Sequence record: OR844765
Reading direction: 5' to 3' (one strand)
DNA: 64,000 bases
From: Escherichia phage ECO111 5-P
Translations under genes and position numbers: made by a program
Part shown: positions 9,711-10,421 of the stretch, piece by piece
Position numbering within the stretch: the stretch's first letter is position 1
Layout: each line of letters begins with the position of its first letter
The notes under the pieces: generated by a model
Database searches by the model: none
The model's input: the letters and a program-made list of their open reading frames with translations, nothing else
What the model was told of the DNA's origin: nothing

Positions 9711-9785
9711 CGCTTCAGTTTAAAAGTGTATAATAAATTAACGGGATAAATACTATCCCGTTGATACTACAAAGTGGATTATACT

Positions 9786-10421
9786 ATGGATTATTTAAAA
9801 ATATATAAAAACTTGGTAAATAAAGAAAGAAATTTTGAAGATATAGATGGTGAATGGCATCATATAATCCCAAAATGTTTAGGTGGCACCGATGAGTCAT
9901 ACAATCTAGTTAAATTAACATATTCAGAACATTATTTGGCTCATCTTCTTTTATTAAAAATATATCCGAACAATTTAGGTTTAGCAACCGCGGTTAATTT
10001 AATGAGTTCTAGAAATAATAAAGAATTTGGATGGGCTAGAGCAAAAATGGTTGATTTGCTTAAAGGGCGAAAATTAGACCAAAAAACAAAAGATAAAATA
10101 TCTCGTTCCAAACTAGGACATGTTAAATCTGAAGAGACTAAAGAAAAGATACGAAATTCTTTATTAGGTAAAAAACGTGGACAATACAATATAAAAATTA
10201 AATCAAAAATTTCTAAAGGAGTCCCATTAAAAGAATCAACTAAGCAAGCTATTTCTAATGCTATGATAGGAGCTAAGAATCCATTTGCAAAGAAAGTAAT
10301 TATAAACGACGTAATATATGATACATTAAATGAAGCGTCAATAATTTTATCTATGAGCACCCAAACGGTTAGACGCCGTCTAAAATCATCAAATTATCCA
10401 ACATGGAATTATTATGTATAA
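9786..10421 (+). CDS. HNH homing endonuclease with NUMOD-like repeats
   Basis: HNH signature EWHHIIPKCLGG...NLVKLTYSEHYLAH; repeated SxETKxKIS modules; C-terminal DNA-binding region; ATG 9786 (track start 9774 is GTG); overlaps nrdA start. Confidence 0.75.
   Translation: MDYLKIYKNLVNKERNFEDIDGEWHHIIPKCLGGTDESYNLVKLTYSEHYLAHLLLLKIYPNNLGLATAVNLMSSRNNKEFGWARAKMVDLLKGRKLDQKTKDKISRSKLGHVKSEETKEKIRNSLLGKKRGQYNIKIKSKISKGVPLKESTKQAISNAMIGAKNPFAKKVIINDVIYDTLNEASIILSMSTQTVRRRLKSSNYPTWNYYV

Follow-up and report, generated by a model that had tools for sequence, protein, structure and literature searches.

The window, a 64,000-nucleotide stretch of Escherichia phage ECO111 5-P (sequence record OR844765), is from a T4-type phage of the RB69 group (Mosigvirus). 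The first of the genes considered here is a seg-like GIY-YIG gene, followed by gene 59, gene 32, frd and td, and between td and nrdA are two genes, nrdA.2 and a gene for a putative HNH homing endonuclease (Table 1). Downstream of nrdA, nrdB, denA and rnlA follow in sequence on the plus strand. Three endonuclease genes lie within about 7 kb, as the earlier note on this DNA had counted them: the seg-like gene, an I-TevI-like ORF within the td intron, and the HNH gene. A further GIY-YIG ORF at 13934–14344 is denA (endonuclease II) and not a homing endonuclease. The seg-like gene overlaps gene 59 by 8 nt, which is similar to the overlap of the HNH gene with nrdA. An Rfam scan of positions 7400–10700 gave zero matches, and the td intron itself was also missed. 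The segment from 9141 to 10700 matches 11 Mosigvirus records over its full length at 97.5–99% identity, and it matches RB69 and approximately 100 further records in two pieces, with the middle skipped.

Table 1. Genes, protein domains and upstream elements of the region, with their positions in the window.
Feature	Coordinates	Strand	Remarks
seg-like GIY-YIG gene	3826–4509	+	
I-TevI-like ORF	8253–8996	+	Inside td intron
nrdA.2	9456–9710	+	DUF5496; between td and HNH gene
Middle-promoter-like site	9709–9734	+	Pattern scan; part of the resident nrdA.2–nrdA spacer, outside the inserted cassette
Ancestral stem-loop, loop AATAC	9740–9762 (core CGGGATA/TATCCCG 9742–9760)	+	At predicted 5′ end of nrdA middle transcript
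HNH cassette, 681 bp	9763–10443	+	23-nt leader, HNH ORF and surrogate nrdA start; RB69 alignment
Weak Shine-Dalgarno-like GUGGA	9774–9778	+	7 nt upstream of HNH AUG; only weak pairing when folded in silico
Mob-type HNH homing endonuclease gene (predicted)	9786–10421	+	211 aa; homology and GenBank annotation of relatives
HNH catalytic motif	9852–9944	+	Residues 23–53 (E23, H25, H26, P29, G34, N40, E48, H49, H53); predicted beta-beta-alpha
NUMOD3-like repeats	10074–10271	+	Residues ~97–162; sub-cutoff Pfam match here, NUMOD3 in 52 of 61 relatives
I-TevI-type helix-turn-helix DNA-binding domain (predicted)	10263–10412	+	C-terminal, residues 160–209; Pfam PF20987, Foldseek 1i3j
nrdA	10414–12678	+	Host gene with remodelled 5′ end; 754 aa here, 751 aa in RB69
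Surrogate nrdA start	10414–10443	+	10 codons (MYNFKVVKNS) in place of RB69 MQVTKSS

The program-made ORF list begins the HNH gene at an upstream GTG (9774), and we took the ATG at 9786 as the start because homologues align from residue 1 and the GenBank relatives are annotated at that ATG; by these alignments the ATG, not the GTG, is evidently the real start. The N-terminus then reads MDYLKIY, compared with MNYxKIY in the family consensus. The translation of 9786–10421 includes GEWHHIIPKCLGGTDESYNLVKLTYSEHYLAH, in agreement with the HNH motif noted previously. The repeated SxETKxKI-like elements described at the same time are also present, with three to four copies at residues 97–111, 114–128, ~135–145, and 148–162; one of them corresponds to Pfam NUMOD3 at 18 bits, which does not reach the cutoff of 20.4 bits. 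The C-terminal segment matches the I-TevI DNA-binding domain (PF20987) at 25 bits with an E value of 1.7e-5, just missing the cutoff of 27 bits, and a Foldseek search with a model of the full-length protein gives the same domain (1i3j) as its best PDB match (probability 1.00, E = 0.022, 30% identity).

Assignment of the N-terminal part is less direct. The protein itself has no match to the Pfam HNH family (PF01844) at E ≤ 0.1, and a PDB search with the single protein sequence gave no HNH match, such that a family profile was needed; T4 MobC and MobE themselves do pass the Pfam HNH threshold. HNH membership therefore is by transitive homology, drawing on the profile and on the family. Pfam HNH is found at E ≤ 0.1 in 58 of 61 relatives (best value 4.7e-6), and H25, H26, P29, G34, N40, E48, H49, and H53 are invariant in alignments of both 61 and 71 relatives. 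In the family profile the segment HHIIPK..GG...NLV.L...EH aligns with the HNH motifs of McrA (E = 4.9e-4), a group II intron maturase, and Cas8f-HNH. An AF2 model of residues 1–95 (pLDDT 91.7) has strands at 22–26 and 41–45 and a helix at 46–59 at the motif; fold searches returned no significant HNH match. The protein matches the PHROG 655 ‘homing endonuclease’ profile (E = 4.6e-46), and similar proteins include T4 MobE (33% identity over 120 aa of the N-terminal part, E = 3e-21), T4 MobC, to which it is closest among the T4 proteins (36% identity over 140 aa), and the protein in the mobE position of phage FriedrichMiescher (48% identity over 77 aa). GenBank relatives are already annotated as either ‘HNH homing endonuclease’ or ‘homing endonuclease’, and among the papers searched none characterizes the HNH gene.

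Together with the presence or absence of the gene among related phages (see below), the PHROG match, the similarity to MobE and MobC and the invariant HNH residues bear out the earlier classification as a Mob-type HNH homing endonuclease. The sequence comparisons support a protein composed of a Mob-type HNH endonuclease and an I-TevI-like DNA-binding tail, with nuclease activity predicted. An N-terminal HNH domain homologous to those of the Mob proteins, joined to a distinct C-terminal DNA-binding region, is the composition by which Mob proteins are defined (PMC2988022), and the combination of HNH with an I-TevI-like tail is common within the family of this protein. The C-terminal helix-turn-helix and the NUMOD3-type linker resemble the DNA-binding domain of I-TevI, but I-TevI has a GIY-YIG catalytic domain and is intron-encoded, whereas here the catalytic domain is HNH, the gene is free-standing and there is no zinc finger.

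I-HmuI of phage SPO1 (PDB 1U3E) combines an N-terminal HNH nickase with NUMOD-type modules and a C-terminal helix-turn-helix and is alike in general architecture, although it is intron-encoded and not free-standing. The earlier note had suggested comparison with both MobA–E and I-HmuI. The Mob half of this holds, with the MobE and MobC similarities given above, but I-HmuI was not detected: 1u3e has no sequence or profile match at E ≤ 10 and is absent from the top 50 fold-search matches. Pfam I-HmuI_NUMOD-like is found in five of the 61 relatives.

Comparison of the td–nrdA junction with HNH-minus relatives such as RB69, which had been proposed as a check, defines the edges of the insertion. 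Homology to RB69 is unbroken from td onward, across nrdA.2, the promoter-like site and the hairpin, and ends at 9762 (...TATCCCGTT); it is regained at 10444 (GGTGTATCCC...), which is nrdA codon 11, so that the alignment breaks lie at 9762/9763 and 10443/10444. In place of 56 bp of RB69 (L001 3620–3675; TGGAGTAATGTCTATCAACCTATACTGAGGAATATATGCAAGTAACTAAGAGCAGT) there are 681 bp in the window. These 56 bp, which are nearly unchanged in five HNH-minus genomes, include the nrdA Shine-Dalgarno sequence TGAGGAA, the start codon and the codons for MQVTKSS. The cassette junctions are identical in all eight HNH-containing genomes examined (the window and seven others).

The cassette therefore supplies not only the HNH gene but also the beginning of nrdA. 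The HNH gene ends 8 nt inside nrdA, as noted previously, with its TAA stop codon at 10419–10421, the nrdA ATG at 10414, and the overlap ATGTATAA spanning 10414–10421. With the substituted N-terminus MYNFKVVKNS, NrdA regains its conserved V-x-K-x-S-G beginning and has the same length as in T4 (754 aa). Among 1275 phage records matching the nrdA N-terminus, this beginning is found only in the 11 HNH-containing records. The only Shine-Dalgarno element before nrdA in the window is a GGA triplet (10405–10407) located 6 nt before the ATG, compared with a GAGGA- or AAGGA-type sequence in every HNH-minus comparator. Because the strong site is lost and only GGA is left, it is plausible that translation of nrdA is coupled to termination at the end of the HNH ORF. 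The loss of the native nrdA ribosome binding site and first seven codons, as seen in the alignments, is a feature that the earlier reading overlooked. The comparison shows that a cassette entered immediately behind the nrdA promoter-like site and stem-loop, equipped with its own ten-codon nrdA start.

The upstream elements are not part of the cassette. The promoter-like site is composed of a MotA-box-like GCTTCA (9712–9717) and, 11 nt from it, TATAAT (9729–9734), with a predicted transcript start at approximately 9741. The arrangement agrees with that of the MotA box and −10 element in T4 middle promoters, from which its function is inferred, and a sigma-70 scan scores the same −10 as TTAACG-16-TATAAT (10/12). 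A scan with the middle-promoter pattern gives 20 plus-strand matches in the window compared with 6.6 ± 2.5 in shuffled sequences, and one of these is at 12672, the expected position of the nrdB promoter. A middle promoter has been mapped upstream of nrdA in T4 (PMC2790892). The hairpin CGGGATA-AATAC-TATCCCG is located exactly at 9742–9760, where it was originally described, and extends to 9–12 bp (9737/9740–9762/9765). No other strong local structure is present in 9650–10520, and the hairpin has predicted energies of −13 to −15.6 kcal/mol (−15.6 at 12 bp) and folding z-scores of −2.8 to −3.2; 0–4 of 200 shuffles fold as well. The left cassette edge falls directly after the hairpin stem. The 52 bp at 9711–9762 have no variation in 12 Mosigvirus genomes, whether they contain the HNH gene or not, compared with pi of 0.03–0.04 in the sequence next to them. 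RB69 and four other phages lacking the HNH gene carry an identical hairpin and promoter-like site, and in these phages both elements precede nrdA itself. The weak ribosome binding region noted downstream of the hairpin was located as the GUGGA listed in Table 1.

The earlier note proposed that the hairpin restrains translation of the HNH gene. Such restraint would resemble that by the hairpins of I-TevI, segB and Aeh1 mobE. I-TevI, I-TevII, I-TevIII, segB and Aeh1 mobE are all subject to translational control by a hairpin combined with a late promoter (PMC2988022), and the HNH gene resembles them in that its ORF lies on a polycistronic early or middle message and follows a stable RNA hairpin. 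The hairpin is stable and lies 13 nt upstream of the Shine-Dalgarno-like sequence, and read-through transcripts have a longer stem, of 12 instead of 9 bp, owing to the first 3 nt of the cassette; moreover, seg43(25) of Aeromonas phage 25 has a comparable hairpin upstream that is non-sequestering, and its effect was left open (PMC2988022). However, the three defining features of that control are all lacking here. In the predicted folds the stem at 9740–9762 pairs with neither the GUGGA nor the AUG at 9786, there is no late promoter close to or embedded in the site that would give late transcripts lacking the 5′ arm of the hairpin (the nearest plus-strand TATAAATA is at 5185), and the element does not belong to the endonuclease gene, being older than it and, with its surrounding 52 bp, 100% identical in five HNH-minus genomes. 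As the hairpin is identical in genomes that do not have the gene and lies outside the cassette, the restraint reading is unsupported and we regard it as improbable. The hairpin is most likely a pre-existing nrdA leader element and not an endonuclease-specific control. Within the HNH ORF and cassette no middle-promoter pattern and no plus-strand terminator were found.

The HNH gene is present in 11 phage records and absent from approximately 100 records with flanks that are 95–99% identical. A free-standing gene located between two conserved genes, nrdA.2 and nrdA, and present or absent among close relatives, is as is typical of Mob genes. In seven complete HNH-containing genomes, 12 sites segregate within the 681 bp of the cassette (pi 0.0076), and pi is 0.043 in nrdA.2 and 0.036 in the first 457 bp of nrdA past the cassette; diversity is thus about five times lower in the cassette than in its flanks (Fisher p = 6e-6 for segregating sites). 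The cassette also has a GC content of 28.3%, compared with 37.9% for the window. The flank haplotypes are mosaic and shared between HNH-containing and HNH-minus genomes, with divergence between the groups equal to that within them; the cassette is found on many of these haplotypes, and flank SNPs start no farther than about 40–60 bp from the junctions. No donor or intermediate homologue with between 98% and 46% identity was found by tblastn against 50,697 phage records or in a search of 5.8 billion proteins, and the next-closest homologues are at most 46% identical (P0005). The one homologue whose locus was examined (P0002, 45% identical) is in a baseplate region away from nrdA. A scan of IMG/VR with an exact degenerate pattern for the surrogate nrdA start gave no match. 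These patterns are as expected if the cassette was acquired once, recently, from a donor that has not been sampled, and then spread across Mosigvirus backgrounds. The low diversity of the cassette reflects recent common ancestry, for which general recombination without endonuclease-driven homing could suffice.

Two further interpretations of the gene and its distribution need to be weighed. The first is that the ORF has decayed or been domesticated and has no endonuclease activity, comparable to the defective T4 I-TevIII, and is retained only for the nrdA start and its translation. The only nrdA start does lie in the cassette, such that deletion would cost nrdA, and the protein does not reach the Pfam threshold for any of HNH, NUMOD3 and the I-TevI DNA-binding domain. 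However, the protein retains every invariant HNH residue and has the full length of its homologues, both of its domains are modelled with confidence, and the very recent spread argues for activity. In addition, the ORF is intact in the seven other genomes, and the eight together have no frameshifts or stop codons and differ by 0–3 amino acids. We thus think it improbable that the gene is such a remnant. The second, that Mosigvirus had the HNH gene ancestrally and RB69 and most of its relatives lost it by deletion, is very improbable: the presence or absence data alone do not give the direction and the junctions are clean in both states, but the HNH-minus allele has a canonical Shine-Dalgarno sequence and an MQVTKSSG beginning (compare MQVQKSSG in Gaprivervirus P479), neither of which would be recreated by a precise deletion, diversity in the cassette is five times lower than in its flanks and the GC content is foreign, the gene is in only ~10% of records, and no HNH-minus genome among the 1275 nrdA N-terminus records has a cassette remnant in the form of the MYNFKVVKNS start.

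The interpretation that we favor, and consider quite probable, is that a mobile Mob-type HNH cassette entered the nrdA.2–nrdA spacer, replaced the nrdA start, is promoterless, and has spread by homing. The HNH gene, having no promoter of its own, would be the leading cistron of the nrdA transcript and would also be carried on read-through transcripts from frd and td, and its protein would be translated from a weak initiation region. With its strong Shine-Dalgarno sequence lost, nrdA would be translated largely by coupling of termination and reinitiation at ATGTATAA. The HNH protein would bind DNA through its NUMOD3 repeats and I-TevI-type helix-turn-helix, and in mixed infections it may nick or cut the HNH-minus allele at or near the 5′ end of nrdA, by analogy with MobE and MobA. 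Recombinational repair would then copy the cassette into the cut genome, and HNH-containing genomes would be immune through their replaced nrdA 5′ sequence. For the HNH gene we infer cleavage, homing and translational coupling by comparison with these systems.

The closest parallel is T4 MobE, which is promoterless, depends on nrd transcription (PMC2790892) and nicks the nrdB gene of T2 (PMC2790892, PMC2988022). The two share a homologous N-terminal HNH domain, and both genes are free-standing, promoterless and appear to ride on nrdA transcription (Wilson & Edgell 2009, PMC2790892). Both are also within the aerobic ribonucleotide reductase operon with overlapping starts and stops, and deletion of either would damage expression of a neighboring nrd gene. 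There are several differences, however. MobE lies between nrdA and nrdB and is 141 aa, whereas the gene described here is upstream of nrdA, in the nrdA.2–nrdA spacer, and encodes a 211 aa protein with NUMOD3 repeats and an I-TevI-type helix-turn-helix. T4 mobE has an internal terminator, whereas none was found in the HNH gene, and T4 mobE harbors the promoter of the downstream gene whereas the HNH cassette instead displaces the Shine-Dalgarno sequence and first codons of nrdA. Gaprivervirus, Bragavirus and Tequatrovirus phages also have Mob-like genes next to nrdA, which were considered as possible occupants of the same site, but all of these are in the mobE position downstream of nrdA. T4 NrdA.1, in the equivalent position in T4, was considered as a decayed copy and is unrelated (DUF4326).

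T4 MobC is similar in length (210 aa) and its gene also overlaps the start of a downstream ribonucleotide reductase gene (nrdG, by 11 nt). It differs in lying in the anaerobic reductase operon, between nrdD and nrdG, both of which its gene overlaps, and its C-terminal region is unalignable past approximately residue 140. Overlap with neighboring genes is common among Mob genes (PMC2790892, PMC2988022).

In the nrdA.2–nrdA junction the Mob family gains a location that is not described in PMC2790892 or PMC2988022. The gene is otherwise an expected feature of T-even nucleotide-metabolism clusters; what this comparison adds is the exact definition of the cassette boundaries, the cassette-borne nrdA start that replaces the Shine-Dalgarno sequence and first codons, and the diversity contrast indicating recent spread. 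There is also a cautionary aspect, in that a hairpin adjoining an endonuclease gene need not be its regulator. With the nrdA start buried in the 3′ end of the cassette, selection would act against cassette deletion if coupling is obligatory. That the cassette is hard to lose for this reason, with NrdA synthesis obligatorily coupled to translation of the HNH ORF, is a tentative and rather doubtful proposition, and if true, a selfish nuclease and an important host gene would be linked in their expression. Given the similar 8-nt overlap of the seg-like gene with gene 59, integration of this kind might then be a general strategy. The HNH-containing and HNH-minus phages are natural partners with flanks of 95–99% identity, and they include the standard laboratory phage RB69. 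They provide a clean system for homing driven by Mob-type nicking, for how an endonuclease is fitted into an essential operon, and for a possible ‘addictive’ takeover of a downstream translation start.

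The 52 bp segment containing the promoter-like site and hairpin upstream of nrdA (window 9711-9762) shows no variation across 12 Mosigvirus genomes, with the adjoining coding DNA having a pi of 0.03-0.04. The segment likely represents a conserved leader or 5′ stabiliser element of nrdA. There is no counterpart in T4, because nrdA.1 occupies that space. Downstream of the hairpin the RB69 leader differs from that in the window (see table). In RB69 there is a GGAG motif immediately 3′ of the hairpin (TGGAGT) as well as a strong Shine-Dalgarno sequence (TGAGGAA), whereas the HNH-containing phages lack both. 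GGAG is the motif at which the T4 RegB endoribonuclease cuts, so that phages with and without the HNH gene could process the nrdA message differently. There is also a near-duplication at the start of the HNH gene (window 9774-9794), with GTGGATTAT at 9774 and ATGGATTAT at 9786, and there are therefore two potential in-frame starts (MDYT-MDYL...); homologues support the second of these.

Coordinates of the regions and features compared
Feature	Location	Further coordinates	Comparison
nrdA leaders	RB69 locus L001 3620-3656; window 9763-9785		RB69 vs window
AV111 nrdA region	AV111 segments L021 2156-3933 and L023	OR352941.1 42500-47800	HNH-minus Mosigvirus
td / nrdB regions	window 7579-9455; comparison phage DNA L002 9594-11862		
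seg-like GIY-YIG gene	window 3826-4509	junctions 3829/3830 and 4500/4501	phage NRG-P0074

Neighbouring sites vary independently in endonuclease content among the compared phages. RB69, SSE1 and WFL6982 lack the td intron and its I-TevI-like ORF, which the window phage, NRG-P0074, a20 and the AV phages all carry; NRG-P0074 has an nrdB intron endonuclease that the window phage does not. An Rfam scan of window 7400-10700 (E ≤ 1) matched no family, including the group I intron in td, which the model probably missed owing to its large ORF insert. In AV111, which lacks the HNH gene, the nrdA annotation comprises two ORFs of 475 and 329 aa with a gene for a 236-aa homing endonuclease between them, an arrangement similar to that in Aeromonas phage Aeh1, whose nrdA is split by mobE. 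An insert containing an endonuclease likewise interrupts nrdB in AV111.

Comparison with NRG-P0074 shows that the seg-like GIY-YIG gene is inserted precisely at the overlap of the gp33 stop and the gene 59 start (TTATTATGA), which is taken over by the ATG of the seg-like gene and re-created at its 3′ end (AACTATGATTAA). The resulting overlap with gene 59 is 8 nt, and the gp59 N-terminus is unchanged. Because the HNH gene and nrdA overlap by the same length, we suggest that the seg-like and HNH genes share a mode of integration into coupled gene pairs.
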